DNA of 64,000 nt from assembly GCA_964635125.1 (NCBI GenBank), contig CAZWMQ010000001.1, positions 211,272 to 275,271 on the forward strand, in the 5' to 3' direction. A model generated the notes under the pieces. That model made no database searches, had not been told where the DNA came from, and saw nothing but the letters and a program-made list of their open reading frames with translations. Position 1 is the stretch's first letter, and each line of letters begins with the position of its first letter. This document shows positions 2,849 to 42,100 of this stretch, piece by piece. The translations under genes and the position numbers were made by a program. This DNA comes from an uncultured Candidatus Saccharibacteria bacterium. Its GTDB lineage: Bacteria > Patescibacteriota > Minisyncoccia > Phycocordibacterales > UBA5272.

Positions 2849-2882
2849 TACGCCTAATTATAGCATAATAACAGGTTAAACT

Positions 2883-3719: not shown

Positions 3720-3855
3720 TCATTAATTATTTTTTTTATTCCTTTCAGTTTTGGTCGGTTATTTTGTGAGATTTTTTGTTGAAATAAAATACCTAGAAAA
3801 ATATTTAGTTTCTTTCTTCCCTTTAACTCCAAAATCTGCTATATTTAATCAAAAT

Positions 3856-6432: not shown

Positions 6433-6525
6433 GGAAGTGAGGAGGAGGAATAATTATCAAATTTCTTATTTTTAGAGAAAATTATTTTCTTAACATTCAA
6501 TTCAGAAATTTGTTATAATAGAATT

Positions 6526-10930: not shown

Positions 10931-11091
10931 TTTTTATATATTTAATTGGTTAATAGAGACTTCAGTTCTAAAAACTCTATTAACCAATTAAAAGGAGTTA
11001 AAGAACAATAATTTTCATATATTATCATAATATATTAAGGTTGTCAAGCAAAAAGTCTTTATTTTATATGTTAAATTTAAATTATAATTAT

Positions 11092-15600: not shown

Positions 15601-15635
15601 AATTAATCTAATTGTGTTATATTTCCATAATTATT

Positions 15636-17093
15636 ATGAGTGATTTTGATTTTAAAATTATTAAAAAATCTATTGAAGCTCCGCTTGCTAGAGTCGGAAT
15701 TATTCACACTCCACATGGAGATATTGAGACTCCAGCTTTTATTCCAGTTGGAACTAAAGCTACCATTAAAAGTATCTTGATTGAGGATTTTGAAAAATAT
15801 GTTGGAGCGGAAGCTCTGCTATCTAATACATATCATCTTTATCTTGAGCCAGGCGAAGAGATTGTTAAGTCTCAAGGCGGATTCGCTAAAATGATGAATT
15901 ATAATGGGCCAACTTTTACAGATTCGGGAGGGTTTCAAGTATTCTCACTCGGTGCGGCGATGGGAGTTGGAGTATCGAAAATATCTAAAAGAGAGGATTT
16001 AACTAATGAGAATATCGAAAAGAATTTGGAAAATAAAAATAATAAATTTAAGAATTTTATTTTAAAAAATAAATATTTATTTTTAGAATTATTAATCTCT
16101 CTAATGGTTGGGTTTATAGTAAGGGCCAATAGTGTAGATATGAATTTACTTTTAAATAGTGTGATTATGATTACTATTTTCTTAATAATTGATAATTTAT
16201 TTTTCAAAAAGTATCGCTTAAAAGATAAATTATTATTTAAAGAGTTAGAAAATAAAGCAAAATCTCTAGTAAAGATAACCGAGAATGGAGTCGAGTTTCG
16301 AAGTGTTTTTGATGGGTCGAAACATTTCTTTACTCCTGAGAAGTCAATGGAGATTCAACATGATCTTGGTGGAGATATATTTTTCGCTTTTGATGAATGT
16401 ACTTCACCCTTAGCAAATTATGATTATCAAGTGGAAGCTTTAAATAGAACTCATCGTTGAGCGAAGCGGTCTTTAAAAAGGCATCTGGAATTAGGGAAAA
16501 GTACAGCTACTGGAGAAAATCAAGCTCTCTATGCCGTAGTTCAAGGTGGAAAGTTTGACGAGCTTCGTAAAGAAAGTGCCAAAGTCTTAAGTGAAATGCA
16601 AGTTGCTGGAGTAGGGTTTGCTGGATTTGGAATTGGCGGGAGTTTTACGAAAAAAGATATGGCAAAAACCGTTAAGATTGCTACTGAAAATCTTCCAGAA
16701 GATAAACCAAGGCATCTTTTAGGAATTGGAGAAATCGAGGATTTATTTTTAGGTATTGAATATGGAATTGATACTTTTGATTGTGTCACTCCAACTCGGA
16801 TCGCTAGGAATGGTACCATCTATACCAAGAATGGAAAAATTAATTTATTTAATGCTAAATACAAAAAGGATTATAGCCCAATTTGTGATGATGAAAGTTG
16901 TTATACTCATCAATACACTAAGAGTTATTTAGCACATTTATTTCGCTCGCATGAAATGATTGCCTCAACCATTGCCTCAATTCATAATTTACATTTTATT
17001 GTGCATTTAGTGAAAGATATTCGGCAAAGCATATTAGAAGATAGATTTTTAGAATTTAAAAAAGAATATCTTAAGAATTATAAAAACAATTAA
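15636..17093 (+). CDS. tgt: queuine tRNA-ribosyltransferase with a ~105-aa internal insertion
   Basis: PVGT, TDSGGFQVFSL, EKSMEIQHDLGGDI, FDEC and RTHRW(TGA at 16458-16460)AKRS. Asp/Zn region VTPTRIARNG...C..C.C..H. Confidence 0.85.
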
Positions 17094-25106: not shown

Positions 25107-25190
25107 GCGTCGGTGGTAGAGTGGTCAATTACAACAGACTGTAAATCTGTCGCCCTTCGGGCTCCGTTGGTTCAAATCCAACCCGGCGCA
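25107..25190 (+). tRNA. tRNA-Tyr (anticodon GTA)
   Basis: Cloverleaf: acceptor GCGTCGG/CCGGCGC; anticodon stem ACAGA/TCTGT with loop CTGTAAA; long variable arm GCCCttcgGGGC; T-arm TTGGTTCAAATCCAAC. CCA is not encoded. Confidence 0.8.
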
Positions 25191-25211
25191 CACATAGTTA
25201 AATAAGAAATC

Positions 25212-25601
25212 ATGTCATCAATATTCACTAAAATTATAAATCGAGAGATTCCAGCGGATATTTTCTATGAGGATGATAAATATATTGCGATCTTAGATAT
25301 TAATCCAATTCGAGATGGGCATATTTTGGTAATTCCTAAAAAAGAAACAGATTATATTTTAGATCTGTCTGAAGAAGAATATTTTGATCTAATGAAAATG
25401 TCTCGTAAAGTCACCGAGAAATTAACTAACAAATTAGAAGCAAAGACTGATCTAAAAAGAATTGCCATGGTAGTAGAAGGATTACAAGTTCCTCATGTCC
25501 ATGTTCATTTAATACCTTTATATAGTGACGACACAGGTCTCGCGATTGGGAAAAAGAATAAACTTACCATGGAAGAAGTTAAGCAGATTTTGTTTAATTA
25601 A
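25212..25601 (+). CDS. HIT-family (histidine triad) hydrolase
   Basis: HILVIPK and the histidine triad VPHVHVHLIP. Confidence 0.8.
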   Translation: MSSIFTKIINREIPADIFYEDDKYIAILDINPIRDGHILVIPKKETDYILDLSEEEYFDLMKMSRKVTEKLTNKLEAKTDLKRIAMVVEGLQVPHVHVHLIPLYSDDTGLAIGKKNKLTMEEVKQILFN

Positions 25602-25623
25602 TATTTTTATTTATAATGAGTCT

Positions 25624-26565
25624 ATGGAGAATATTATTATTTTATTTTATAAATATACTAAGATTGATAGTCCGGAGACTTTAAAAGAAATAGAAAAATC
25701 TGTTGGAGAAGTTTTAAATTTAAAAGGAAGAATCTTAATTGCTACGGAGGGGATTAATGGAACTTTGGAAGGGACTACTGAAAATATTGAAAAATATATA
25801 CAACATTTAAAGTCAATTAAAAAGTTTAAAGATATAAATATTAAAAAAAGTATTGGAACAATTGATCAGTCAGCATTTCCAAAACTATCTGTGAAAGTTA
25901 AAAAGGAAATTGTCTCGATTGGATTAGAAAAGACTATTAATCCGAATCGTCAAACTGGAAAATATTTAGAAGCTTCACAACTTAGAAAGTGATATCAGGA
26001 AAATAAGGATTTTGTAATTGTTGATATGAGAAATGATTATGAGTTAGCCTCAGGGTATTTTAATAAGACTATCAATCAAGAAATTGGATTTGATTTGAAA
26101 AATAGTCGTGATTTACCGAGTATGGTCTCAAAATCTAAATTAAATATTTATAAAGATAAAGATATCGTTACGGTTTGTACCGGAGGAGTGAGATGTGAGA
26201 AAATGTCAGCTTATCTTTTATCGCAAGGTTATAAAAATGTTTATCAGTTACATAATGGAATGCATACTTATATGGAGAAATATCCAGGGGAGGATTTCAA
26301 AGGGACACTATTCACTTTTGATAATCGATTAGTGATGGATTTTGGTGGTGAAAAAAGAGAAATAGTCGGAGAATGTCTTTATTGTAAAGATAAATGTGAG
26401 AATTATTTAAATTGTAGTAATAATGAGAGAATTAACATTGGTGATAAGTCTAAGAAATTATGTAATAAGAAAATTATTGTTTGTGAGAATTGTATAGATA
26501 AATTAAAGCAGAGTCAAGAAAATATTCTATGTGAAGATTGTCAAAGATATGAGAAAAGTATTTAA
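25624..26565 (+). CDS. trhO: rhodanese-domain tRNA U34 hydroxylase (TrhO/YceA family) with a Cys-rich C-terminal extension
   Basis: ILIATEGINGT, and the rhodanese active-site loop VCTGGVRCEK. One TGA-Trp (RKWYQENKDF). Confidence 0.65.
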
Positions 26566-27484
26566 AGTAATAGTTTATCTATTTGCAATCTGAGGATTTA
26601 TTTTAACCGGAGTATTTTTGGCGATGAAGTTTGGCTGGACTAAGTCTGATAGTTTAATTGATAAGCAATCTGAATATTTTAAGAAATTGCTAGACGAAGC
26701 TAATCTCGGGAATAAAGATAAGAGAATTGAGATTGCTAATCAGCATTTTTTAAATATTGAAAATATGCCTGAATGGTCAGTGATTAAAGAAGGTATTTTA
26801 AAAGATAAAGATATGATTGAGACAATTTCAGAAATGACTGGAGTTAGTCCTCGTTTAATTATTACTCCATTAATTGCTGAGCAATTAAGATTAATGACAT
26901 CACAGCGAGAAATATTTAAGAAATACTTTCAACCACTGGCCGTCTTAGGATCACAAACTCAATACAGTCTTGGCATATATGGAATTAAAGAAGCAACCGC
27001 TAAAGAGATTGAGAGAAATCTTAAAGATACGAATAGTCCATATTATCTTGGTATCAAATATGCTAGTCTTTTGGATTATGAAAATTCGACCAACACTTTA
27101 CTAGTTGATGCTTGAACATTGGAAGCAGTGAAAAATAATTCTACCACTTCTTCAACTACCGAAGACACTATCTTATTAACTGGGAGTGATGCCGATCGTA
27201 TTAGTCGTTTAACCAGTAGTCAAAATCATTTCTACTCTTATCTTTATGCTGCATTATATATTAAGGAATTGGAAGTCTCTTGGGAGAAAGTCGGGTTTCC
27301 AATTAAGGATAGGCCAGAGATAATTGCTACTTTATTTAACATTGGTTTTAATAATTCTCATCCTAATTCTAATCCACAAGTTGGTGGTGCTGAAATAGAT
27401 TTAAATAATGAGAAATACACTTTCGGATCAATTGCTTATTATTTCTATTATTCTGATGAGTTAAGCGATGTATTTTTAAGATAG
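26549..27484 (+). CDS. membrane-anchored protein, possible lytic transglycosylase-like domain
   Basis: N-terminal TM helix. A weak SLT-like pattern (IAEQLRL...GSQTQYSLGIYGIKEATAKE). Two TGA-Trp codons. Its start overlaps the trhO 3' end by 17 nt. Confidence 0.4.
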
Positions 27485-27521
27485 GATTTGAGTTATAATA
27501 TAAATATGAAAAATGCAATTA

Positions 27522-28310
27522 TTATTTTATCTTTAATAATTTATTAAATATATTTTCAAAATAATCAGTACCCATTGCTCCAGAAACTTTCTGAACAATT
27601 AATCTATTATCTTTATCTTTATAAACTATTACTGAGTATGGTGTCCCATCTAAGCCAGCCTCAGTTGCATCGTTTTGATCAGCTTCAAATTCTGTATTAT
27701 AAGTATAACTATTGTAGCAATTTTGAAATTCTTCTTTATTAAAATCTTTCAATACAGACTGATTCTTACTTTTAGTTAAATTATAAGCATATTCCACAAT
27801 ATCTGGTAAAATAGAATCATCTAAACCATTATTAGCTGGAGTAACATCATAAATTCTATCAATTGAATTAAGATAAACATTCTGTCCATAGAGTTCTCTT
27901 GAACAAAGTAAAGCATTAATCTCGAGAGGTGCTTTAGTGTGGAAACTTAATCCATAGTGACGATAAACTATGGCAATTTTCGACTTGGTGTAATCATTTG
28001 GATCTAAGCCATAATCTTTACGAATCTGCTCAACGGTATTTTGATGTAGCATTTTACAAAATGGACATTCCGGATCAGAGTAAATTATCCAGACTATTTT
28101 ATTATCAGGATTACCTAATATATATTCATCTTTTTGAAAAGCTAATCCATTGAAATATTTATCTTGATTCATAATTTGATTTAGAGCGTCTTCTTTAACA
28201 CTTTTTTTATTAATTAAAGAATAAGCTACAACTGACAAGGCTAAGATTATACTTGAGATGATAATAGCGATAGCAATTGGATTTTTAATTAAGTTTTTAA
28301 ATATTTTCAT
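27522..28310 (-). CDS. DsbA/BdbD-like thiol-disulfide oxidoreductase (membrane-anchored)
   Basis: N-terminal TM helix, thioredoxin CPFC active site, and the cis-Pro motif GTPYSVIV. Confidence 0.75.
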   Translation of the reverse strand: MKIFKNLIKNPIAIAIIISSIILALSVVAYSLINKKSVKEDALNQIMNQDKYFNGLAFQKDEYILGNPDNKIVWIIYSDPECPFCKMLHQNTVEQIRKDYGLDPNDYTKSKIAIVYRHYGLSFHTKAPLEINALLCSRELYGQNVYLNSIDRIYDVTPANNGLDDSILPDIVEYAYNLTKSKNQSVLKDFNKEEFQNCYNSYTYNTEFEADQNDATEAGLDGTPYSVIVYKDKDNRLIVQKVSGAMGTDYFENIFNKLLKIK

Positions 28311-28351
28311 AGATTATTTCTAGTCATTATAGCATATGATATACTTTTAAT

Positions 28352-28675
28352 ATGATTAAACTAATACTTACTTTTATCGCAGTATTTTTAACTACGAAGA
28401 TTGTGGGAGTTGGTTATATTGGTTGGAAGGTTTTAATAATATTTACTTTAATCTTAACTTTACTTAATTTTACGATTAAGCCAGTTTTAAGATTTATAAC
28501 TTGGCCGATTAATTTAATTACTCTTGGCTTAACTTATTTTATTATTAATGTTGGAGTTTTATTGTTAGCTAGTCATTTTACTAAAGGGTTTGTTTTTATC
28601 TCTATTAAACAGGTTATTATTTTTAGTATAGTTTTATCTCTAATTCAATGGTTATTTAATAAATTTGATTTTTAA
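28352..28675 (+). CDS. 4-TM membrane protein, phage-holin-4 / YvlD (DUF360) family
   Basis: 107 aa. ITWPINLITLGLTYFIINVGVLLLASHF matches the family core. Confidence 0.55.
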   Translation: MIKLILTFIAVFLTTKIVGVGYIGWKVLIIFTLILTLLNFTIKPVLRFITWPINLITLGLTYFIINVGVLLLASHFTKGFVFISIKQVIIFSIVLSLIQWLFNKFDF

Positions 28676-28749
28676 TTGAGATTTGTTATATTTAATTTTG
28701 AAAATTTCTTTTTATGAAAAATCCAAATTAAAAGGAGGTATTCAACACC

Positions 28750-28784
28750 AAAACCATCTGAAGTCTCAGATGGTTTTTTATTTT
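28750..28784 (+). terminator. Rho-independent terminator
   Basis: AAAACCATCTGA-agtc-TCAGATGGTTTT followed by TTTATTTT. Confidence 0.65.
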
Positions 28785-28816
28785 GATATAATAGAGAAAT
28801 ATTATATATTTAAGAT

Positions 28817-31735
28817 ATGACTAAGATAAATTATCAAGCTATAGAAAGCAAATGGCGAAAATATTGGGAAAGTATTAATCTAAATCAGACTAAGACCAGT
28901 TTCAAAAATGGTGAAAAGAAATTTTATATTCTAGATATGTTTCCATATCCATCTGGAGAAGGATTACATGTTGGACATCCTAAGGGTTATATTGCCACTG
29001 ACATATATTCTCGATATATGAAGATGAATAATTATAATGTTTTACATCCGATGGGATTTGATGCCTTTGGATTACCGGCTGAACAATATGCCATTAAACA
29101 TAAATTAAACCCTAAAATAGCTACCGAAAAGAATATTCAAAGATATAAAGAACAATTAGATATGCTCGGGCTAGATTATGATTGGGAGCGAGAGGTTAAT
29201 ACTACTGATCCTAATTTCTATAAATGAACACAATGAATGTTTAAGCAAATGTATAAAGTTGGCCTTACCTATCAATCTAATGAACCAATTAATTGATGTC
29301 CAAGTTGTCAGACCGGGTTAGCTAATGAAGATCTAGATGGTAATGTCTGTGAGCGATGTGGAAGTATAGTTGAGAAAAGACCACTTCGTCAATGGGTAAT
29401 TAGGATTATCGATTACGCCGATCGTTTATTAGATGATCTTGATAAATTAAATTGAGAACCACATATTAAAGAATTACAGAGAAATTGAATTGGCAAAAGT
29501 ATTGGGAGTGAGATAGAGTTTCAGATTGTGAGAGCTAATATATTTGGTTTTGATATAAGAACTAATTATGACACTGATGAAGAGTTATTTAAGACTGGTA
29601 GGAAAAGATCAGTAGCTATTATTAGAATTAAAGATACAGATAAATTTTTAGGATTTATTAAAAGAGACGATAGAGATATTCATTTAGCTGGTGGTGGAAT
29701 TGAGAAAGGAGAAAATTCTAGAGAAGCCGCTGAAAGAGAGGCTTTTGAAGAAATGGGAATTAAAAATCTCAATCATTTAGGAAGCCTCGGCTCATTTCGT
29801 GGTTTCGAGTATTACGAATTATTTGAGGTGGAAGAAAATTATAAAAAAAATTTATCAGGTTCATCAGAATTGGAAAGAGATGAAAATTCTTTTATTGAGT
29901 TTACAAAAGAAGATATATTAAAAAATAATTGGCAACAAGTTTCTTATGTTTTTAATAATTTAGACTCTTTGTTTAATAATAGTGTTTTAGAAAATAAATT
30001 AAAAATCTTCACAACTAGAGCCGATACTTTGTACGGGGCGACTTTTATGGCTATATCATATTCCTTAGCTAAACAATGGATTAAAGAAGGTTGAGTTCCT
30101 AGCGAGGAGATTAGAAAGTTTATTGAAAAATTAGAGAATGATGAGAAAGGTAGATCAGTAGAGTTTGATATGAATAAATTAGAAAAAGAAGGAATTGATA
30201 CGGGAATTAAGGCCATTAATCCAGTAAATAATGAAGAGATTCCAATTTATATTGCTAATTATATATTAAGTGATTATGGAACTGGAGCAATTATGGCTGT
30301 GCCAGCTCATGATGAGCGAGATTATGAATTTGCAAAGAAATATGGTTTAGAAATTAAAAAAATCATTCTTGGTGAGCATGATGAAGAGAATCAATTATTT
30401 ACTGGGCATGGAATATTAATTAATTCAGGAGAATTTGATGGAATGAATAGTGAAGAAGTTAAAATAAAAATTACCGAGAAAGTTCACGGAAAGATTGTCT
30501 CTCAATATAAATTAAAAGATTGAGTATTTGCTCGTCAACGATATTGGGGAGAACCATTTCCAATTGTTTTTGATGAAAATAATCAGAGTTTCGCGGTGGC
30601 TGATACTGAATTACCAATTAAATTACCAGAGATAGAAAATTATGAACCCTCTGGAGATGGACAATCGCCATTAGCTAAGATTAAAGATTGAGTAGAAGTG
30701 TATGGGTTTATAAATAGCGAAGGAGAGTTTGAGAGTTTAGAGAAAGATAATCCTAAAGCTAAAAAGTTTTACCGCGAAACCAACACTATGCCACAATGAG
30801 CTGGATCTAGTTGATATTATTTAAGATATATTGATCCAAATAATCAAGAGAGATTTGTAGGTAAAGAATTAGAAAAGGTTTGAGATCCGGTGGATTTCTA
30901 TGTGGGTGGAGCTGAGCATGCTACAAGGCATTTAATCTATGCCAGATTCTGGCATAAGTTCTTATTTGATCAAGGATTGGTCGAATATGATGAGCCGTTT
31001 TTAAAATTACAAACGGTAGGCTTAATAATGGCCGAAGATGGACGAAAGATGAGTAAGAGATATGGCAATGTAGTTAATCCAGATGAGGTGGTTAAAGAAT
31101 ATGGAGCTGATACTATGCGAGCTTATGAGATGTTCATGGGGCCATTTGAGAAATCTACTGCTTGAAGCACGAAAAATATCTTAGGAGTATATAGATTCTT
31201 AGAGAGAGTTTATGATTTATCTTTAAAGTTAAAAAATAATTATGGAAGCGATAATAGAGAAGTTGAAAGAGTAATTAACGAAAGTGTTGAGAAAGTTGGT
31301 AATGATATATTAGAGTTCAAGTTTAATACAGCTATCTCACAGTTGATGATCTGTTTAAATACTCTAGAAGATAATTTGAAAAAAGGAGAGAGTTTTTCTA
31401 AAGAAAGTTTAGGGAAGTTTATAAAGATACTTTCACCATTTGCGATATTTATTACCGAAGAGATTTGGCAAGAAGTATTAGGAAATCAAACTTCAATTCA
31501 TCAAGAATCTTGGCCAAAATTTGATAAAAATAAAACCATAGTAGAGGAGATAGAATTATCAATTCAAATTAATGGAAAGTTTAGAGGAACAATTAAAGTT
31601 AAAGTTAATTTAGATAAAGAGGAAGCAATGAAAGAAATTAAATCAACAGAAATCTTTAAGAAATATGTGGAAGATGAGAATAAGATTAAAAATATTATCC
31701 TAGTGAAAAATCGTTTAATTAATATCATTATTTAA
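28817..31735 (+). CDS. leuS: leucyl-tRNA synthetase carrying an internal Nudix-box insertion
   Basis: HIGH motif (HVGHPKGY) and KMSKR(Y). 12 in-frame TGA codons, all at conserved Trp positions ([43 protein letters not shown]...). The reading frame is continuous across track ORFs 28817, 29528, 30170, 30890 and 31343. Confidence 0.9.
29534..30001 (+). other. ~150-aa Nudix-hydrolase-like domain inserted within LeuRS, just before the CP1 editing domain
   Basis: It lies between [16 protein letters not shown] and [15 protein letters not shown] (the CP1 start). It carries a perfect Nudix box GX5EX7REUXEEXGU = [23 protein letters not shown], preceded by an IHLAGGG loop. Confidence 0.7.
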
Positions 31736-31852
31736 AATAGAGAAGTTAGAATTAGAATAGTTTTGACTATTTTGTCAAAGTATAGTAGTATATAGGTATA
31801 AAAGAAATATAAGTAAGTATTATTAAAAACAATAAAATAATTTTTTAAAAAT

Positions 31853-32893
31853 ATGACTGATAATCCAATCATAACCTTTAAGCCAAAACAAGTTTCAAAG
31901 AAGCTTCTTTCAACTTTAAATCCTAGGATGCGAGACATTATTACTAATCGTTATGGACTTGAAAGTGAGAAAAGAATGACTTTAGAATCAATTGGTCAAT
32001 CTTATAATATAACCAGAGAGAGAGTGCGACAAATTGAAAACTTTGCCCTATCTTCTATTAAAAAGACCGAAGAGTATAAAGATAATAGTTTTATTTTTGA
32101 GGAGTTAAAAGAAATTATTAAAAGTCTAGGTTCAGTAGTTAGAGAGGATGTTTTAATGAATCATATTTCTAAAGATAAAATAACTCAAAATCATATTAAC
32201 TTATATTTGATATTAGGAGGAAATTTCACTAAGATAAAAGAGAATGATGATTTTCATGCTCGTTGGAGTGTCGATGATGTAGTTTCTGTTTGTGTAGAAA
32301 ATGGCATATCTAAACTTTGTTATTCAATTAGAGAGGATGAATTATTAAAAGAGGGTGATGTTATTGAGAGATTCGTTACTAATTTAGATGATTTGGTAGA
32401 TGAATATAAAAATAATAAAGAAATAATTCAAAGATATTTAAAAACTTCTAAAGTAATTGATAAAAATGATCTTGGAGAATGGGGGCGGACAACTTCTCCA
32501 CATATCAATGCTCGAGGAATTAAGGATTATGCTTATCTTATTGTCAGAAAGAATGGCAAACCTATGCACTTTAAAGATGTGGCTAATGAAATTAGTAAAA
32601 TCTTTAAGAAAAGAGCTAATGTGGCGACATGTCATAATGAATTAATTAAAGATGATAGATTTGTTTTAGTTGGGAGAGGGATGTATGGATTGAAAGAATG
32701 GGGGCATGCGACTGGAGTAGTTCGAGATGTTATTACTCAGATTCTAAAAGAAGCAAAGCAATCAATGTCAAAAGAGGAAGTTATTAAAAAAGTTTTAGAA
32801 AAAAGAATTGTTAAACCAAATACTATTCTTATAAATCTTCAGAATAGTAAATATTTTTCTAAAGATAAAAATGGTAAATATACAATTAAATAA
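31853..32893 (+). CDS. sigma-70 region-4-like HTH domain protein
   Basis: N-terminal LESIGQSYNITRERVRQIENFAL, like sigma region 4.2, followed by about 250 aa of unknown function. Confidence 0.5.
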   Translation: MTDNPIITFKPKQVSKKLLSTLNPRMRDIITNRYGLESEKRMTLESIGQSYNITRERVRQIENFALSSIKKTEEYKDNSFIFEELKEIIKSLGSVVREDVLMNHISKDKITQNHINLYLILGGNFTKIKENDDFHARWSVDDVVSVCVENGISKLCYSIREDELLKEGDVIERFVTNLDDLVDEYKNNKEIIQRYLKTSKVIDKNDLGEWGRTTSPHINARGIKDYAYLIVRKNGKPMHFKDVANEISKIFKKRANVATCHNELIKDDRFVLVGRGMYGLKEWGHATGVVRDVITQILKEAKQSMSKEEVIKKVLEKRIVKPNTILINLQNSKYFSKDKNGKYTIK

Positions 32894-32987
32894 AGCTTAA
32901 ATTTTGTTAAATAAAAACCATTTTAAAAATTTAAATTAAGTGGTTTTGTTTTTATACAAGTGTATTTATATATGTTATAATTTTAAT

Positions 32988-34520
32988 ATGGAAAGTATTC
33001 AATTAATTATTGATATTGGGTTATTTTTAATATATTGTGCAGTATTTACTTTACTTTTGGCTTGGACTTGGAAGTTTTGAATGCTTTATGTAAATACTGA
33101 GTATATGAAATCTTTGAAATATTCATTATTAGAAATTAAATTACCTCGGGAGATTAATAAAAGTCCTGAAGCAGCGGAAATATTTTTACGAGCGGTTTAT
33201 GATGGAGGAGGACTTGGTCCATGGATAAAAGAGCAATGAAAAGGGGCCATGCCAGCGGTGACGGCTCTTGAGATAGTTTCTTTAGAAGGAGTGATACATT
33301 TTTATTTAAGATGTGAATCAAAGTTTAAACCAAGAGTTGAAGCCGCTATCTATTCACAATATCCGAATGTGGAAATAATTGAAGTTGAAGATTATGTTAA
33401 TTTGTTGCCAAAGATTGATAGGCATAATAAAGATGGGCATGGATTCTGAGGTAGTGATTGGAAATTATCTAAAACAGGTGGAATTGATGAATATGGTGAT
33501 GATAAAGAAAAGAAATTAGTGAAATTAGAATATGCTGGAGATATGTATCCTATAAAGACCTATAAAGATTGAGGATTAGATAAAGACCCTAAAGAAATGC
33601 ATAAGCACGACCCTTTAACTTATTTGCTTGAGCAATTTGGCTCAATTGGTGAAGGTGAATATTTCTGCCATCAAATCCTAATTCGTGATGCGGGTAAATG
33701 GAGTGATATTTATACTATTGAGAAAGACAAGAAAAAGGAAAGTGGAAAGAAATTGTCAGATTTAGTAAAGTTAGAAATAGATAAATATAAGAAGAAATGG
33801 TCTTTAAAGAAAAAAGGAGATAAGGAAAAAGATGAATGAGGTAATTATAAAGGTAAAACTATTAAAGATGCTGATGGAAATGAAAAAACAATTCCTTATG
33901 AATATACTGAAGATATTTTGACACCCAAAGCTATTCCACCGAACGAAAGAGAGGCAGATGCTAAAGAGAATTTAGAATTAATACAGAGAAAGATGGGTAA
34001 GCCACAAGTGATCGCTAAGATGAGGACTATTTATGTAAATAATGGTAAGACTGAAGCTAATATGGGTAGCCGTATTGCTATGTTAGGAGGAATTTTAAGA
34101 AGTTTCAATGAGGATGCTTTTAATACTATAGGTCCTGATATGTCAACTTTTCCAGATCCATTTGATTATCCATGGCAAGATCCGTATAAACATTATTCTG
34201 GGTGAAGAAAAGAGAATCTTTTCAATGCTTATATTTCTCGTGGGGGAATGTTCTCTTTGTCTGGGGGAATGGGGAAAGGATCTAAGAAGTTCTTAGATAA
34301 TGCTATGTTCAACACTCCTAATTATATTCGTAAAATATATACTGATATTTCAAATATATTATTTCATCCATTTTTACCAACTCGAAATAAATATGGCTAT
34401 ATCCTAAACTTAGAAGAATTAGCTACCCTTTATCATTTTCCAGGTGAAGTGGCGGCAACTCCTACTTTACCGAGAATTGATTCTACAAAGTCATCACAAC
34501 CATTTAATATTCCAACTTAA
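32988..34520 (+). CDS. Trp-rich membrane-anchored hypothetical protein (510 aa)
   Basis: ATG at 32988 with an N-terminal TM helix. Six in-frame TGA-Trp codons join track ORFs 33249, 33597, 33918 and 34248 in one frame. Confidence 0.5.
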
Positions 34521-34613
34521 TTTTTATATTTTTATTAATTTAAAAGTTTTATAGAAAAAATATTTATCATTTTTTAGATAAGTATTTTTATGTTATATTA
34601 AGCAATAAGATAT

Positions 34614-35741
34614 ATGCCACAAGATGATTTTCGAAATTTTTTATTAATTAGAAAGTTAGAAGAAGATAAGAAAAATCAGACTTTTTTTTCTAGATTGATT
34701 CAGATAAAATGATTGATATTATTAGTTATAATAATTGTTACTATAATTTATTTTATTTATTTTATTTTTTTTACTAAAGTTAATTTAAGTAACTTGTCAG
34801 TAGTTCAAGGATCTAACTTTTTTCAAATTAAAGACGGGGAGACTGTTAGTCAAGTCGGAGATTCATTGAAGAAATTTAATATTATTAAATCAGAGACGGC
34901 TTTTAAAATTTATGTTAAGACTTTTTCAAATCTTTCTCTAGTTCAAGCAGGAATTTATTCAATAAATAAAACTGACACTTTAGTCTCCTTAGCTAATAAA
35001 ATAATTAAAGCGCATTATGCTATACCTCCAGTTAAGATTACTATTCCAGAAGGAAGTGATAATTTAGAAATTGCTAAAATTATAAGCCAAGCTTTTAATG
35101 TTCCAAATAATTCTACTCAATTGGTTGATGATTATAGTATTACTAATATTTCAAATAAAATCTCTAATGATGAAGGGTATTTATTTCCAGAGACTTATGT
35201 ATTTTTACCAAATATTTCTTTAGATAAAGTGATTTCTAAGATGAAAAGTGAATTTTATTATAATTTAAAAAATATTTTTCAAAACGAAGCTACCGAATTA
35301 GGAATTTACTCTTTAGACTTGAATAAATTTAATATTAATGATTATTTTAATGATGGTGATGAGAGTGTTAATTTAAAGAAAAGATTTACGATTAAAAATG
35401 ATATTGGTACAATTACAGTTACTATTAAAGACGTTATTACTATGGCTAGTTATTTAGAGGGTGAAGTTAATAATGAAAATGATATGCGTAAAGTTTCTGG
35501 AGTATTATGGAATAGATTAAGATTAAATTATCCATTACAGATCGATGCTGCTACTAGTACTTATAAAGTTAAAGGTTTTACAACAACTCCAATTAATAAT
35601 CCTGGCTTAGTAGCAATTCGAGCAGCGATTAATCCTATTAATACTGGAGACATTTATTATTTGACTGGTAAAGATGGAAAGATGTATTATGCCAAAAACT
35701 ACACAGATCATCTTAGTAATATAAATAAATATTTAAGATAG
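34614..35741 (+). CDS. mltG: endolytic murein transglycosylase MltG (YceG family)
   Basis: N-terminal TM helix, ITIPEGSDNLEIAKII, GYLFPETY and LQIDAATSTY. One TGA-Trp near the start. The track ORF began at an internal TTG. Confidence 0.8.
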
Positions 35742-35787
35742 TATATTATTTTGAGTATTTAATTGTGTTATAATCAAAAAATATTTT

Positions 35788-36342
35788 ATGAAAGAAAGAA
35801 ATCTAGCTTTTATCGATGTGGAGACTACGGGGACTAATCCAGATCGCCATGAGATTATTGAATTAGCTCTAATTGTAGTTAAACAAATTGAAAGAGAAGG
35901 TCTAGGTCCTAAGATTGAGATTATTGGCGAATATGAATGGAAGATTAAACCAGAACATTTAGAGGATGCTGAAGAAGAAGCTTTACGTATCAATGGTTAC
36001 AATGAAGTTGATTGGATGTTTGCGGTATCTCTTAAGAAGGCTATGGAGGATTTTAATAATAAAGCTGAAAGTTGTACTTTTGTATCACATAATTTAACTT
36101 TTGATTATAGCTTTGTTCAGAAAGCCTATCAAAAGACTGATATTGAGAGTAAAATGCATTATGCAAAACTCGATACTATTTCAATTGCTTTTGCTCGCCT
36201 TTATGACGCACCTCAAGCTGATAAGTTTTCTTTGAAATTTCTTTGCGAATTATTAAAAGTCGAAAATAGTAAAGCACATACCGCCTTAGCTGATACAAGA
36301 GCGTTAGTTGAAGTGTACAAGAAATTAATGCGAGCGGTGTAA
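35788..36342 (+). CDS. DEDDh 3'-5' exonuclease (DnaQ-like)
   Basis: Exo I FIDVETTG, Exo II HNLTFD, Exo III HTALADTRAL. Confidence 0.75.
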   Translation: MKERNLAFIDVETTGTNPDRHEIIELALIVVKQIEREGLGPKIEIIGEYEWKIKPEHLEDAEEEALRINGYNEVDWMFAVSLKKAMEDFNNKAESCTFVSHNLTFDYSFVQKAYQKTDIESKMHYAKLDTISIAFARLYDAPQADKFSLKFLCELLKVENSKAHTALADTRALVEVYKKLMRAV

Positions 36343-36368
36343 TATAAATTTAATTGATATAAAAAAAT

Positions 36369-36986
36369 ATGAAAATAATTTTAATAGGCGGAGCACCAAC
36401 AACAGGAAAATCAACTTTAGCAAAGGATTTAGCTAAGCATTTCGATATTCCTTGGATTTCGACTGATCAAATAAGAGAAATTATGAAAGCCGTAGCAAAA
36501 GAAGAAGAATATAAGAATATTTTTAATACTAAAGGGTTTAATGTTAAAAGTTTTTATAAAAAATATTCTCCAAAAGAAATATCAAATATGGAATTTGAGC
36601 AAGGCAAGGAGGTTTGGAAAGGAGTAAAAGCTTTGATAAAACATGGCTGGGTATGGAGAGATGGATTTGTTTTAGAAGGTTTAAATATTTTACCAAGTTT
36701 AATAAATAGGGATTTTAAAGATGATAAGAATATAAAAAGTGTTTTTCTTATAGATAAAAATGAGGAAAGAATAAGAAAGGTAATTTTTGAGCGAGGATTA
36801 TGGGACGATCCAGAAAAGTATCCAGATTATATAAAAGAAAGTGAAATTGAATGGGTAAAATTATTTAATGATAAGATAACTAAAGAAGCCAAAAAATATA
36901 ATATGCCTTGTATTGAGGTTTTAGATCACAAAAAGGTATTTCAGAATACTTTAAAAATTTTAAAGGCAAAGAATAACACACCTTAA
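36369..36986 (+). CDS. P-loop NTPase / putative kinase
   Basis: Walker A GGAPTTGKST. No further family assignment. Confidence 0.5.
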   Translation: MKIILIGGAPTTGKSTLAKDLAKHFDIPWISTDQIREIMKAVAKEEEYKNIFNTKGFNVKSFYKKYSPKEISNMEFEQGKEVWKGVKALIKHGWVWRDGFVLEGLNILPSLINRDFKDDKNIKSVFLIDKNEERIRKVIFERGLWDDPEKYPDYIKESEIEWVKLFNDKITKEAKKYNMPCIEVLDHKKVFQNTLKILKAKNNTP

Positions 36987-37028
36987 AAAGGTTTTACTTT
37001 TTATATGTTTTAATATATATTTATTTTA

Positions 37029-38084
37029 ATGCAAAAAAGTAATTCAAAAAAGCAAAAAGTATTTGTTGGTATGTCGGGAGGTGTAGATTCTTCGGTCTCA
37101 GCTTTACTTCTGAAAAATCTTGGTTATGAAGTTACTGGTGTCTTTATTAAGGTTTGGCAACCCGACTTTATAGAGTGTACTTGGAGAGAAGATAGACAAG
37201 ATGCGATGCGAGTCTGTGCGCAATTAAATATACCTTTTATAACTTTAGATTTAGAGAAAGAATATAAAAAAGGTGTAATTGATTATATGGTGAGAGAATA
37301 TAAAGTCGGCCGAACTCCTAATCCCGATGTATTTTGTAATAAAGAAGTAAAGTTTGGAGCATTTCTTAATTGGGCGATCAAAAATGGAGCTGATTATGTT
37401 GCGACTGGACATTATGCTAGAATTAAAAATAAACAATTACTTCGCAGCAAAGATCTTAGTAAAGATCAAAGTTATTTTCTCTGGACTCTAAACTCTAAAC
37501 AACTCTCTAAAATATTATTCCCAGTTGGTAATTTATTAAAGACTGAGATACGAGAAATCGCTAAAGAAAATAATTTATATACTGCTAGCAAGAAAGATTC
37601 TCAAGGATTATGTTTTATTGGGAAAATCGAGATTAAAGACTTTCTTGGAAAATATTTAAAAAATAAATCTGGAATTATAATTAATGAAAATACTAAAAAA
37701 GAAAATGGTAAGCATAAAGGAATTGAGCTTTACACTATAGGTGAGAAAATTAATGGAAAATACATCGTTCGGAAAGATATAAAGAAAAATATTTTATATG
37801 TAGTTGATAATTTAGAAGAAGATAATTTAATAAATAACGAAATAAAGCTGACCGAGATTAATTTTACAGAAAATTTAAAAGTTAAGGGAATATATACACT
37901 TCAAGAGAGATATCATAGCCAAGAAGTTAAAATTAAAATAATAGAATTAAAAATAAATAAAAGTAGATCAGAATTATCTTTAAAATATAAATTATTAAGT
38001 TCTAATAATCTTCTATCTGTATCGGGACAATCTTTAGTGTTTTATAACAAACAAACCTTAATCGGCGGAGGGATTATTAAATAA
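37029..38084 (+). CDS. mnmA: tRNA-specific 2-thiouridylase MnmA
   Basis: PP-loop GMSGGVDSSV, and CNKEVKFGAFLNWA...GADYVATGHYA. Confidence 0.85.
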   Translation: MQKSNSKKQKVFVGMSGGVDSSVSALLLKNLGYEVTGVFIKVWQPDFIECTWREDRQDAMRVCAQLNIPFITLDLEKEYKKGVIDYMVREYKVGRTPNPDVFCNKEVKFGAFLNWAIKNGADYVATGHYARIKNKQLLRSKDLSKDQSYFLWTLNSKQLSKILFPVGNLLKTEIREIAKENNLYTASKKDSQGLCFIGKIEIKDFLGKYLKNKSGIIINENTKKENGKHKGIELYTIGEKINGKYIVRKDIKKNILYVVDNLEEDNLINNEIKLTEINFTENLKVKGIYTLQERYHSQEVKIKIIELKINKSRSELSLKYKLLSSNNLLSVSGQSLVFYNKQTLIGGGIIK

Positions 38085-38214
38085 TATTATTACGACATAT
38101 AAAAATAATTTGTAAAATCTATACTTACTAATTAGCTTGATATAATAATTGTATTACTAGCTATTATTAATAAACTTAAATGTTAGTAATTAATTTAATT
38201 AACAATTTATTTAT

Positions 38215-38898
38215 ATGAAAAAATATTTAGCCGAATTAGTCGGAACTGCAATTCTAGTTATAATTGGTTGTGGTACGGCGATTTTCGCTGGGAGTAGTGT
38301 AGGAGTATTAGGAGTTGCTTTAGCTTTTGGATTAGCTTTAGTTTTAGTTACTTATTTAATTGGTACTTTATCGGGGGCTCATGTTAATCCAGCAGTGACT
38401 ATCGCTTTAGCTTTAGTTCAAAAATTTCCTTGGAATAAAGTAGCTGGATATGTTATCGCTCAAATTTTAGGGGCATTAATCGGAGCGTCAATTTTATATG
38501 CTATAGCTTCAAATTTGGCTAATGCTAGTCAACTTATAATAAATGGAGGTTTTGCTACTAATGTTTTACATGGAGGAGTATCTGTAACAGCCGGTGCATT
38601 GGTTGAGATATTTATGACTATGATATTCTGTTTAGTAGTATTAGCTACCACTAGAAGTAATTGGCCATCAACTTGGACTCCAATTGCTTCAGGGCTTGCT
38701 CTATTTGCAGCTAATTTAGTAGCAATACCTTTGACCGGAGCTTCAATCAATCCAGCTAGAAGTATTGGTCCAGCTTTAGTCTCGGGTCACACTTCAGGAC
38801 TTACCTTATTTATAGTCGCTCCATTAGTTGGAGCAGTATTGGCTTACTTTGTACATATTTTTGTTATAGGGAAAGGGCATTTTCATTACGAAAATTAA
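38215..38898 (+). CDS. aquaporin / MIP-family channel
   Basis: Two NPA boxes (HVNPAVT and INPARS) and six TM helices. GC-richer than its neighbours, with 3 Trp all encoded by TGG. Confidence 0.85.
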   Translation: MKKYLAELVGTAILVIIGCGTAIFAGSSVGVLGVALAFGLALVLVTYLIGTLSGAHVNPAVTIALALVQKFPWNKVAGYVIAQILGALIGASILYAIASNLANASQLIINGGFATNVLHGGVSVTAGALVEIFMTMIFCLVVLATTRSNWPSTWTPIASGLALFAANLVAIPLTGASINPARSIGPALVSGHTSGLTLFIVAPLVGAVLAYFVHIFVIGKGHFHYEN

Positions 38899-38920
38899 TA
38901 AAGTATTTTTTTAAAAAAAA

Positions 38921-38950
38921 GAAAAGCCAATCTTTATTGGTTTTTTCTTG
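38921..38950 (+). terminator. Rho-independent terminator
   Basis: AAAAGCCAAT-cttt-ATTGGTTTTT followed by TTC. Confidence 0.6.
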
Positions 38951-39154
38951 CTTTATTATATTAATTATGATATATTTAAAGTTATATTGACGAGATGCTT
39001 ATCTTCTTTCCATCAGGTTTTGAGTTTTTGGGTGACTCAAGTCAATAATAATTTCGAAATTATTATTAATAAAATTTAAAAAACTTCTTAATATTACACT
39101 ATATTTTTAGTTTTTTTATTGTCTGTATTTTTTAATATCAACCTTTTATTTTAT

Positions 39155-42100
39155 ATGTCTAAGAGTAAGAACATTAATCAGAGTCTTTTAGTTGCTAATC
39201 TGCCTAAAAAGACTTTTTCTAATTTTAGAAAACCTTTCATTGAATTGCCAAATTTAGTTGAGAATCAATTAGCTTCTTTTAAAAAATTAATCGACGAGGA
39301 TTTAGGTTTAATTTTAAAAGAATTAAACCCTATTAAAGATTATACAGAAAAGAAATTTGAGTTAGAGATAACTTCCTTTGAATTAGCTGAACCTAAGATA
39401 ACTGAAGAAGAAGCTAAAAATAATAAATTAACTTATGAAACTCCATTAAGAGCTAGAATTTTATTAAAGAATAAAATATTAGGAACCGAAAAAGAGCAAG
39501 AAATTTTTTTAGCATCATTTCCCTTAATGACCGTTCACGGCTCATTTATTATTAATGGAGTGGAAAGAGTCATTATCCCACAATTAGCTCGTAGTGCCGG
39601 AGAATTTTTTAGTTTTGAAGAAATTAAAGGTAAAAAATATTTTGCCGCAAAAATTGTTCCTAATCGAGGGGCTTGGCTTGAAATTATAACTTCTGACGAT
39701 AATGAAATGTTTGTAAAAATTGATAAGAAAAGAAAGTTTTCAGTAGTTTCTTTTTTGCGAGCTATTGGATATGTAACAGATAAACAGATCTCCGAAGCTT
39801 TTAAAGAAATACCACTAGTCCATACTTATATTATGTCTTTAGTTGATAAAGATCCAATTAAAGTTGCCGAAGAAGCTTATATTGATATTTATAAAAAATT
39901 ACGAGATGGAGATTTGGCCTCAGCTGATAATGCTAAAGCTTATATTTCTTCTTTATTTACTAAAGAGAGATATGATTTATCGCCGATTGGAAGATTAAGA
40001 TTTAATAAGAGATTTGATTTATCTTTAGATAAGAAAGAGATGGCAAGATTAACTTTATCAAAAGAAGATATTGTTTTAATTATTAATCATTTAATTAAAT
40101 TAAATAACGATCCTGAAGCTGAGGCCGACGATATTGATCATTTAGCATCTAGAAGAGTTAGATTTGTGGGAGAAATGTTAGGTATGAAAGTTAAGAAAGG
40201 AATGCTACAAGTTAAAAGATATATACAAGAGAAGATGTCAGTGATTGATACTGATACAACTTTACCAGTAACAATTATTAACCAGAGACCTCTACAAGCT
40301 CGAATTAAAGAATTCTTTACCGTAAACCAATTATCTCAACTTATGAATCAGGAAAATCTTTTAGCAGAAATCGAAACTTTAAGAACCGTATCGGCACTTG
40401 GGCCAGGAGGAGTCTCTAAAGATAGAGCTGGGTTTGAAGTTCGCGATGTTCACACTTCTCATTATGGAAGAGTTTGTCCAATTCAAACTCCAGACGGAGC
40501 AAATGTCGGTTTAATTTTAAGATTATCGGCTTATGCTAAGATTAATGAGTTTGGTATTTTAGAAACTCCATATGTAAAAGTTGAAAAGGGAAAAATTACA
40601 AAAGAAATAGAATATTTAAATGCTTTACAAGAAGAGAATACAGTTATTGCACAAGCAGCTATTAATTATGATGAGAATGGAGTAATTAAGGATGAGTTAG
40701 TCCAAGCTCGTCGTGGTGCAAACCCAGCTATTGTTCATAAGAGTGAAGTTAGATATATTGATGTAGCTCCTAATCAGGCATATTCTATTGCTACTAATAT
40801 GATTCCATTTTTGGAACATGATGATGCAGCAAGAGCAAGTATGGGATCTAATATGCAAAGACAAGCTGTACCGTTAATTTTAGCTGAAGCTCCATATGTA
40901 GCTACTGGTATGGAAGAAGCAGCTTCAAAATATATAGGTAGATTAGTTTTAGCTGAAGAGGCAGGTGTGGTCAAGTATTTAGATGCAAATAAAATAATCA
41001 TAACTGATAATAAAAATAAAGATAAGACTTATAATTTAACGACTTTTTCTAGGACTAATAGTTTTACAGTATTTTATCAAAAACCAATTATTAATATTGG
41101 AGATAAAGTAAAAAAAGGCGAAGTTTTAGCCGACTCTTCATCATCTAATGGTGGTCAAATTGCTATCGGTCATAATATTAGAGTAGCTTTTATGAGTTGG
41201 AATGGAGCAAATTATGAAGATGCTATTATAATTTCTGAAAAATTAGTTAGACAAAAGAAATTCTCTTCTATACATATCGAAGAATTTATTTGTAATGTTC
41301 GTGATACTAAGTTAGGTGATGAAATCACTACTCACGATATTCCTAATGTTGGTGAAGCTAAGCTTAAAAATCTAGATGAGGATGGTATCATTCGTATAGG
41401 AGCGGATGTTAGAGCGGGAGATATATTAGTAGGTAAGATTACACCAAAAGGAGAAACTGAATTAACACCGGAGGAGAGATTGTTAAGAAGTATTTTCGGA
41501 GAAAAGATTAGAGATGTCAAAGACACTTCTTTACGATTAGATAATGGGAAAAGAGGTAGAGTTATAGGAATTAAAGTCTTTTCAAGAGATAGAGGCGATG
41601 TCTTAGATAGCGGAGTTATTAAAAGAATTCATATTGAGGTGGCTCAATTAAGAGATATTCAAGTTGGAGATAAATTGGCTGGACGACACGGTAATAAGGG
41701 TGTTATTTCAAGAATTTTACCTGAAGAGGAGATGCCATTTACTGCCGATGGTGAACCGATTGATATTATTTTAACCCCATTAGGAATTCCATCTCGAATG
41801 AATATCGGACAGATTTTAGAGATGCATTTAGGTTTAGCAGCTAAAACTTTAGATTATCAAGCTATTACTCCAGTTTTCGGTGGAGCTACTGATGATGAGA
41901 TTAAGGATGAATTAGAAGCTGCAGGATATGATAGAAGTGGAACAGTAGATCTTTACGATGGTAGAACTGGAGAAAAATTTGCTGATAAGATTGCGATTGG
42001 AATCATGTATATTCTTAAATTACATCATATGGTAGAAGATAAATTACATGCTAGAAGCATTGGTCCATATTCATTGATCACTCAACAACCATTAGGAGGA

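Follow-up and report, generated by a model that had tools for sequence, protein, structure and literature searches.

The DNA analyzed here (the window) is a 64,000-nucleotide (64-kb) stretch of contig CAZWMQ010000001.1, from an uncultured Candidatus Saccharibacteria bacterium. Nucleotides 28817-31735 of its forward strand correspond to leuS, which codes for a bacterial-type leucyl-tRNA synthetase (LeuRS) of 972 amino acids (aa) into which a Nudix hydrolase domain is inserted in frame. The gene is open in a table-4 translation, with 12 in-frame TGA codons. As a whole, the protein scores 915 bits with the leuS_bact model TIGR00396 (cut-off 548.4), and Pfam assigns to it the families tRNA-synt_1, tRNA-synt_1_2 and Anticodon_1, that is, the catalytic, editing and anticodon-binding domains; the LeuRS editing domain PF13603 is matched with 195 bits. 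Alignment with the Thermus thermophilus LeuRS (1H3N) gives an E value of 2.5e-171.

The signature motifs of the enzyme, all read from the forward strand, were assessed in a 63-sequence alignment comprising the window LeuRS and 62 relatives. The HIGH motif reads HVGH (aa 51-54, 28967-28978), with H51, G53 and H54 invariant and V52 nearly so. The threonine-rich editing motif of the CP1 domain, TTRADT (aa 399-404, 30011-30028), includes an invariant T400, residues T399, R401, D403 and T404 being nearly invariant. The CP1 motif with the conserved editing aspartate (aa 488-502, 30278-30322, AHDERD corresponding to aa 497-502) aligns to its T. thermophilus counterpart, and its residues G488, G490, A497, H498, D499, R501 and D502 are invariant. 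So are all five residues (K744, M745, S746, K747 and R748) of the KMSKS-type motif KMSKR (aa 744-748, 31046-31060). Judged from its sequence, the LeuRS around the insert is intact, with the aminoacylation and editing motifs all kept. It shares with the bacterial LeuRSs of solved structure (T. thermophilus, 1H3N/2BYT; Escherichia coli, 4AQ7/4ARC) the HIGH motif, the zinc-binding CxxC pairs, a CP1 domain with TTRxDT and AHDxRD, the KMSKS motif and the anticodon-binding and C-terminal domains. Unlike them, it has a short leucine-specific region, and it differs from the T. thermophilus enzyme in about 153 extra residues located at a hairpin tip, between T. thermophilus residues 236 and 240.

The limits of the inserted segment (approximately aa 241-393, about 153 residues; 29530-29993, forward strand) were defined by BLASTN and codon comparison with the closest relative retrieved, and by alignment with LeuRSs from the PDB. 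That relative, L004, is a Logan contig from SRR27197493 whose LeuRS core is 83% identical to that of the window. L004 and the window are collinear along 11 kb, where 76-80% of the nucleotides are identical, and share the neighbouring genes; the leuS of L004 (828 aa, 13 in-frame TGA codons) lacks the insert. In the BLASTN alignment, L004 1-4423 pairs with window nucleotides 25123-29529 and L004 4453-10737 with 29994-36335. The 464 nt at 29530-29993 of the window face 29 nt of L004 (4424-4452), a net gain of 435 nt that keeps the frame. At the codon level, VDAEKNNLNIDKLK in L004 stands against VRAN[...]LENKLK in the window, about 153 residues replacing an 8-residue hairpin tip. When 1H3N is used as reference, residues 1-237 of the window protein align with its residues 1-236 and residues 392-741 with its residues 240-581, a 3-residue hairpin tip being replaced; positions 238-391 are covered by none of the 17 matched solved LeuRS sequences. 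According to these alignments, the insert replaces the tip of the first CP1 beta-hairpin, directly before the threonine-rich editing motif.

The inserted segment by itself matches the Pfam family NUDIX (PF00293) with an E value of 1.1e-10 and 42.0 bits (38.2 bits for the full protein; cut-off 21.1). The Nudix box, G-X5-E-X7-R-E-U-X-E-E-X-G-U, spans aa 293-315 (29693-29761, forward strand) and has its full set of metal-binding Glu residues; none of the seven defining residues (G, E, R, E, E, E and G) varies in any of 26 aligned Nudix domains embedded in LeuRSs. A hidden Markov model (HMM) of such LeuRS-embedded domains matches the leuS open reading frame (ORF) of the window with an E value of 4e-31; the same HMM has no other match in the 64 kb, where no second Nudix gene was found. 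A match of that strength, being the sole one in the window, excludes chance. The AlphaFold2 model of the insert, based on the alignment of 26 LeuRS-embedded Nudix domains, has a mean predicted local distance difference test score (pLDDT) of 81.6; model residues 30-158 or so (aa ~262-390) are mostly above 90, and the first 22 or so are below 50. Comparison of this model with the PDB by Foldseek gave 510 matches at E values of 1e-3 or lower. All matches listed are Nudix proteins, and the best target-normalised TM-score among them (0.78) is to DIPP3-alpha. A full-length model was also obtained for P0004, a relative that has the insert at the same site (site A below) and a second Nudix domain (pLDDT 86.8; predicted TM-score, pTM, 0.76). 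This model shows two folded Nudix domains and a LeuRS core predicted with confidence, the linker (residues 245-254) being disordered (pLDDT below 50); despite its low pLDDT, the linker sequence is conserved among site-A orthologues. Sequence and models together portray the insert as a linker of about 20 aa (aa 241-261, 29537-29599) followed by a complete alpha/beta/alpha Nudix fold (core aa 262-390, 29600-29986). Given an intact catalytic box on which selection acts, the domain is presumed to work as a pyrophosphohydrolase, and we consider such activity quite probable.

An initial annotation of this locus had described an intact LeuRS with about 150 extra residues at 29534-30001, forming a whole Nudix fold with an intact box at 29693-29761. 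The conserved HVGH, KMSKR and CP1 motifs and the TIGR00396 score above cut-off agree with the first point. The coordinates were right to a few bases when compared with the BLASTN indel, the length is close to the 153 or so residues obtained by comparison with L004, and the box position was exact. As to the fold, the PF00293 search of the table-4 translation yields a significant match, at 42 bits against 21.1, and the model core exceeds a pLDDT of 90; HMM match and fold were thus both found. The insert had further been assigned to the junction between catalytic domain and CP1. It does lie in frame just before the threonine-rich motif of CP1; the place is, however, the tip of the first CP1 beta-hairpin and no true inter-domain junction.

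An unusual architecture such as this one might be an artefact: the assembly could be chimeric at this place, or the insert could be an intein or an intervening sequence that the mature protein no longer contains. Apart from the architecture itself nothing speaks for that explanation, the probability of which we consider negligible. An independent Logan assembly of SRR11845619, made by a second assembler, is 100% identical to window nucleotides 25114-40094. In addition, the survey of relatives proposed in the initial annotation revealed an orthologous insert at the same codon position, with 54-59% identity, in four sequences from other assemblies: P0004 and P0005 (58 and 56% identical to the window over the insert), L002 and L003. 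The latter two, a 'Patescibacteria group bacterium' metagenome-assembled genome (MAG) and a 'Candidatus Nomurabacteria' MAG, are the only two loci with a site-A insert retrieved in a scan of GTDB representative genomes, among the matches of which the source genome itself did not come up. The concern about a chimera, voiced in the same annotation, is effectively settled by the second assembly and by these orthologous inserts, which show the insertion to be authentic. The reading frame is unbroken, and purifying selection acts on the insert. Between L002 (2505-2972) and L003 (4001-4468), the ratio of nonsynonymous to synonymous substitution rates (dN/dS) of the insert is 0.16 (pN 0.06, pS 0.30), that of the LeuRS flanks being 0.07-0.10. 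In the same comparison dS is 0.38 for the insert and 0.85-1.36 for the flanks. This lower dS, together with Nudix domains that are more conserved than the core in several pairs (see below), suggests either recent lateral exchange of the cassette or unusual constraint.

No terminal inverted repeats or target-site duplication bracket positions 29530/29993, where only short AT-rich chance matches were found, and a transposon-like or repeat-bounded insertion was rejected on that account. An intein was rejected as well: there is no Hint/intein Pfam match, and the boundaries, VRA/NIFGF and VLEN/KLK, have neither the nucleophile of an intein (N-terminal Cys/Ser) nor the His-Asn plus Cys/Ser/Thr of its end. 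A search of the 64-kb window with Rfam returned no intron. In GC content the insert (0.28) differs little from the remainder of leuS (0.32). Rickettsia palindromic elements are in-frame selfish insertions in protein genes, and inteins are comparable in-frame inserts. The window insert resembles both in being in frame in an essential gene, at a surface site and patchily distributed among close relatives; unlike them, it is a complete conserved enzyme with neither palindromic or terminal repeats nor splicing motifs. In the mature LeuRS it should still be present.

With the complete LeuRS as query, LeuRS sequences of the Parcubacteria/Paceibacterota type were retrieved. At least one Nudix domain is present in 51 of the 120 nearest cluster representatives, five of which have two. 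When the inserts were mapped onto the insert-free P0002, three hot spots emerged. Site A is the first CP1 hairpin, as in the window LeuRS. Site B, a loop inside CP1 after AHDxRDxxFA, is the Nudix site of most proteins of about 960 aa, and site C corresponds to the region of the leucine-specific domain in other LeuRSs. Nudix is by far the commonest cargo of the three loops. Other cargoes are, at site A, ASCH (P0021, P0026), an alpha/beta serine hydrolase (P0011) and DUF559 (P0102); at site B, two unassigned inserts (P0112, P0121); and at site C, ASCH (P0025, L003) and a methyltransferase (P0026). The three loops can be occupied at once: the L003 LeuRS, of 1212 aa, has Nudix at A, Nudix at B and ASCH at C.

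An HMM of the site-A insert was also searched against 1.84 billion representative proteins, yielding 422 matches at E values of 1e-3 or lower. LeuRSs or LeuRS fragments account for 10 of the 23 matches at 1e-10 or lower, some of them with two or three Nudix copies. A word-index search with the insert alone, too insensitive for a divergent domain, found only the insert itself (as a table-11 fragment, P0001). Further combinations were observed: P0130, a LeuRS of 1610 aa, has two Nudix domains plus Ham1 and HAD; in the LeuRS P0141, Ham1 stands beside Nudix; P0179 carries a serine hydrolase too; and P0138, a class I synthetase fragment, combines GNAT and Nudix. Outside LeuRS, the same Nudix subfamily occurs in RNase PH (P0125, between its two domains), in HisRS (P0129, C-terminal), in a GatA-like amidase (P0127, C-terminal) and in methyltransferases (P0140, P0195, P0203). 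The fusion partners of the closest Nudix relatives are mainly tRNA- or RNA-handling enzymes.

The initial annotation knew of no described LeuRS with a Nudix module. Our search of the open-access literature likewise found no paper on a LeuRS-Nudix fusion or on domain turnover in synthetases of the candidate phyla radiation (CPR); the window protein is nevertheless not singular, given the 51 of 120 nearest clusters that carry Nudix. The architecture is present in public protein sets, where many matches combine a precomputed PF00293 assignment with the name 'leucyl-tRNA synthetase', and therefore the window gene is not its first instance. Synthetases with extra domains are a known theme, for which NCBIfam has a model of IleRS with a GNAT domain (NF040702, 'ileS_w_GNAT'). 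As in the window LeuRS, an essential class I synthetase there bears an additional small enzyme domain; synthetase, cargo and position are different, the cargo of the window LeuRS being in the CP1 hairpin and polymorphic among close relatives. NF040702 appears among the matches of the window LeuRS solely through the shared class I core. What is new is the Nudix cargo, its position in a CP1 loop, the three independent sites and the strain-level polymorphism.

To follow the turnover of the inserts, a neighbor-joining tree of 123 LeuRSs was constructed from 799 core columns. Insert-bearing and insert-free LeuRSs are interleaved in it at all depths. P0050 has no insert and P0053, with a 96.8% identical core, has a site-B Nudix; the same difference is found between P0071 and P0077 (core 90.6%). 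P0099 has an extra site-B Nudix when compared with P0102 (core 95.6%), and the site-B Nudix of P0020 contrasts with the site-A ASCH and site-C methyltransferase of P0026 (core 91.6%). In near-identical pairs the insert is cleanly present or absent, the LeuRS sequence to its left and right being conserved. Nudix domains can be more alike than their hosts (95 vs 83% core identity in P0068/P0079; 91 vs 81% in P0078/P0095), and the closest core partners can have different Nudix types (core 85% and Nudix 64% in P0068/P0091; 89 and 68% in P0075/P0081). The distribution of the two Nudix types does not agree with core relationships. This incongruence, along with the lower dS of the insert in L002/L003, implies that the histories of the cassettes are partly independent of that of the host gene. 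Exchange by homologous recombination via the conserved LeuRS flanks would be the simplest mechanism.

The window insert shows no sign of recent transfer, its identity to the P0004 insert being 61%, compared with 73% in the core. It is absent from the nearest relatives P0002, P0003 and L004, meaning that their branch lost it or that the branch of the window gained it. As near-identical LeuRSs differ by the domain and the nearest relative is devoid of it, the domain is to be regarded as accessory cargo and not as a fidelity mechanism.

As to the substrate class, family models, profile and fold comparisons and the residues downstream from the Nudix box were considered. The best-scoring equivalog model is that of the YffH/AdpP subfamily (TIGR00052), with 28.9 bits against a cut-off of 79.55. 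RppH models score 18-23 bits (cut-offs 116-259) and YtkD 25.6 (cut-off 154). The NCBIfam matches include no dedicated equivalog of a diadenosine tetraphosphate (Ap4A) hydrolase. Among solved structures, the profile of LeuRS-embedded domains matches best the Ap4A hydrolase of lupin (1F3Y; E value 1.6e-12), followed by an uncharacterised Nudix protein and then by ADPRase, Dcp2, MutT, DIPP and RppH; structural scores are nearly flat across Nudix subfamilies. With respect to residues beyond the box, a passage of PMC5389931 (citing Dunn et al. 1999) states that the X-loop, about 17 residues past the box, contacts the 'X' moiety and that a Tyr there marks hydrolases of diadenosine polyphosphates (ApnA). 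As described in the same passage, a Pro about 16 residues past the box is typical of ADP-ribose pyrophosphatases, and SQPWPFPxS of NADH pyrophosphatases. The window domain has Tyr332-Tyr333 in the X-loop region (29810-29815, forward strand), at +17/+18 after the box. Among 48 LeuRS-embedded Nudix domains, 43 have a Tyr at +15 to +19 (28 at exactly +17) and none has a Pro at +14 to +18.

Three subfamily assignments are not supported. The ADP-ribose pyrophosphatase subfamily lacks support both from the X-loop, with no Pro in any of the 48 domains, and from the TIGR00052 score. For NADH pyrophosphatase (NudC), NF001299 reaches 11.9 bits (cut-off 158) and SQPWPFPxS is absent from aa 316-393. The cut-offs of the MutT 8-oxo-dGTPase equivalogs are not reached either, both models scoring far below them (TIGR00586, 17.4 vs 97.9; NF008044, 17.6 vs 148). 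The domain seems to resemble hydrolases of the ApnA/DIPP/RppH type most closely. An ApnA-type substrate class (Ap4A, ApnN) may tentatively be put forward; the lines that point to it agree, each of them being weak. The known Ap4A/DIPP hydrolases (1F3Y, Caenorhabditis elegans 1KT9, T. thermophilus Ndx1, DIPP1/NUDT3 and yeast DDP1) are 18-23% identical to the insert, with no family model above cut-off; they are free-standing, whereas the window Nudix is embedded in another enzyme and its activity is predicted. Hydrolysis of Ap4A or Ap3A, suggested in the initial annotation, holds as the best-supported class in view of the +17 Tyr and the 1F3Y profile match, and falls short in that no family model exceeds its cut-off. 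Aminoacyl-tRNA synthetases are a main source of Ap4A, which Nudix enzymes cleave asymmetrically to AMP and ATP, and E. coli RppH has been shown to be among the Ap4A-degrading Nudix hydrolases (PMC10148737).

On balance, we lean towards an interpretation in which this authentic Nudix domain, kept by selection and in all likelihood active, serves as an accessory, exchangeable ApnA-type module of LeuRS. The LeuRS would work as a normal synthetase, having kept all its aminoacylation and editing motifs. The Nudix domain would be an autonomous accessory enzyme, co-expressed with LeuRS and tethered to it at the CP1 hairpin tip through the flexible linker of about 20 residues. Three surface loops of LeuRSs from Patescibacteria (Paceibacteria/Parcubacteria-type) accept small enzyme domains, and inserts are gained, lost and swapped between close relatives, probably by homologous recombination in the flanks. 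The most likely substrates of the Nudix domain would be dinucleoside polyphosphates, side products of aminoacyl-adenylate-forming enzymes, Np4-capped or 5'-polyphosphorylated RNA ends being also possible. The module would clear a by-product or alarmone derived from the adenylate at the site of its production. The fusion of the same Nudix subfamily to HisRS would count in favour of an Ap4A-type role.

A HIT-family gene (PF01230/DcpS_C; 25212-25601, forward strand) is located about 3 kb upstream of leuS. HIT enzymes hydrolyze Ap(n)A and aminoacyl-adenylate-type compounds, and the product of this gene may overlap or complement the role proposed for the Nudix domain.

Several considerations weigh against an ApnA-type module. 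For the window protein, no NCBIfam equivalog of a characterised Nudix enzyme is above its cut-off. From our own reading of its sequence, E. coli RppH presumably also has the +17 Tyr, and consequently this residue does not separate free ApnA from RNA-end substrates. The fast gain and loss shows that LeuRS does not need the Nudix domain. The association could reflect only a permissive loop and co-expression, with no link to leucylation, and the HIT-family gene could already cover the hydrolysis of Ap(n)A or aminoacyl-AMP. Lastly, the Ham1 and HAD co-insertions of relatives point towards nucleotide-pool sanitation.

This last function, a MutT/ITPase-like cleaning of damaged or non-canonical (d)NTPs for which LeuRS would provide constitutive expression or proximity to an ATP-using site, strikes us as an unlikely but serious alternative. 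Ham1, of the ITP/XTP pyrophosphatase family, and a HAD phosphatase stand beside Nudix in P0130, and Ham1 in P0141; the fold and profile comparisons also brought up MTH1 and MutT. Patescibacteria are described as unable to make nucleotides (10.64898/2026.07.13.738296), and salvaged pools may need cleaning if there is no nucleotide synthesis. RNA-end processing has a smaller chance of being correct. It would consist of an RppH/Dcp2-like removal of a 5'-pyrophosphate or of Np4/NAD-type caps, possibly from the synthetase-bound tRNA, in which the 5' end is adjacent to the acceptor end that CP1 handles. The CP1 domain of LeuRS binds the tRNA 3' end, and the inserts are found within this domain or adjacent to it. 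The best matches in sequence and fold include Dcp2, RppH and YtkD/BsRppH, the similarity being weak but consistent, with the +17 Tyr shared by E. coli RppH, and the closest Nudix relatives are fused to the tRNA-end enzymes RNase PH (P0125), HisRS (P0129) and the GatA-like amidase (P0127). However, these fusion partners are few, with one representative each, and perhaps coincidental; the scores of the window domain are far below the curated cut-offs (about 20-23 bits with the RppH models of NCBIfam, against at least 116), no RNA-binding feature or extension is evident in it, and the 5' end of mature tRNA is normally a monophosphate.

It is also improbable, to a similar degree, that the insert is a selfish or neutral passenger: a mobile in-frame cassette or tolerated fusion that exploits a permissive loop and recombination and brings no benefit tied to LeuRS, perhaps as a non-catalytic ligand sensor. 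The very fast turnover, the incongruence between Nudix and core, the heterogeneous cargo, which includes the endonuclease-fold domain DUF559, and the lower insert dS of L002/L003 (0.38 vs 0.85-1.36) would fit such an origin. Against it, the invariant catalytic residues and the dN/dS of 0.16 imply that a function of the domain itself is selected. Terminal repeats, target duplications and intein or homing motifs are lacking, the GC content (0.28) is near that of the remaining gene (0.32), and the over-representation of Nudix (51 of 120) is hard to explain by neutrality alone. The initial annotation had also proposed a role akin to pre-transfer editing, in which the Nudix domain hydrolyzes mis-activated aminoacyl-adenylates. 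The domain adjoins CP1, and nothing further favours this very improbable role. Nudix enzymes cleave phosphoanhydride bonds of NDP-X substrates, and the bond in aminoacyl-AMP is an acyl-phosphate. Moreover, the CP1 motifs for post-transfer editing are intact, nearly identical LeuRSs (91-97% in the core) and the nearest relative L004 do without the domain, and Nudix is found at three loops that are unrelated to one another and also in HisRS, a synthetase devoid of an editing domain.

Returning to the accessory ApnA-type module, a degradation of Ap4A-type dinucleotides by it would represent a natural fusion of alarmone source and sink. If true, the fusion would lend itself as a simple system to decide between signal and waste for the ApnA that synthetases make, a question that is still open (PMC10148737). 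A broader and more doubtful proposal is that the patescibacterial LeuRS is a 'hot-swappable' scaffold, with three loops that take up interchangeable in-frame enzyme cassettes (Nudix, ASCH, serine hydrolase, DUF559, methyltransferase, Ham1, HAD, GNAT) exchanged at the time-scale of species divergence, the Nudix cargo clearing Ap4A-type by-products or alarmones, or RNA/tRNA 5' caps, in cis. It would amount to a previously unrecognised accessory-genome variation inside a core gene. That an essential translation enzyme has differing loop enzymes in near-identical relatives is unusual for aminoacyl-tRNA synthetases and is relevant to how genome-reduced symbionts package functions. The three sites are, in addition, naturally validated permissive positions of LeuRS for engineered domain insertion.

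The 12 in-frame TGA codons of leuS deserve separate comment. They correspond to W137, W140, W160, W213, W224, W426, W569, W625, W661, W666, W689 and W783, and in the alignment with 62 relatives all 12 fall in invariant, nearly invariant or consensus Trp columns, just as the initial annotation had stated. As these TGA codons are located at conserved Trp columns, TGA reads as Trp, and not as Gly, in the window. In-frame TGA codons are found in about half of the window ORFs of at least 90 aa, for instance at 28817-31735 (leuS), 11041-12168, 57086-58651 (reverse strand) and 32940-34520. In GAPDH they are located at LA[W]YDNE and KN[W]RLGRAG, and in RelA/SpoT at SRK[W]LDF. UGA is also read as Trp in the nearest relative, L004; leuS of L002 and L003 uses TGG only. 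A 2026 review of the phylum gives UGA-to-Gly, in the Gracilibacteria lineage, as the sole recoding (PMC13293708), and UGA-to-Trp in a Paceibacteria-like lineage may be unreported. A release-factor gene at 5479-6453 (forward strand) scores 371-376 bits with prfA models, just below their cut-offs, and 223 bits with prfB, being of the RF1 type. This is consistent with a lost recognition of UGA, without proving the loss. Neither prfB nor a tRNA-Trp(UCA) is present within the 64-kb window, the only tRNAs of which are tRNA-Tyr and tRNA-Leu(CAA).

LeuRS is not the only housekeeping enzyme of the window with an inserted segment. The tRNA-guanine transglycosylase Tgt (15612-17093, forward strand; 493 aa, 432 bits with TIGR00430) is a second one: about 115 of its residues, mostly hydrophobic and including LFLELLISLMVGFIV and IMITIFLIIDNLFF, form an insertion without counterpart in the model of 368 positions. 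Downstream from leuS, an ORF of 526 aa (32940-34520, forward strand) with six in-frame TGA codons is hydrophobic in an N-terminal segment and matches no NCBIfam model at E values of 1e-5 or lower; a gene of similar size is found at the same position of L004. Finally, the region 574-4971 includes four ORFs without TGA codons and has a raised GC content (0.34). Annotated by eye, two of them are DNA methyltransferase-like ORFs with a DPPY motif that, with the 468-aa ORF between them, resemble a restriction-modification cluster, and the fourth is similar to a YchF-type GTPase. Part of this region may have been acquired horizontally.

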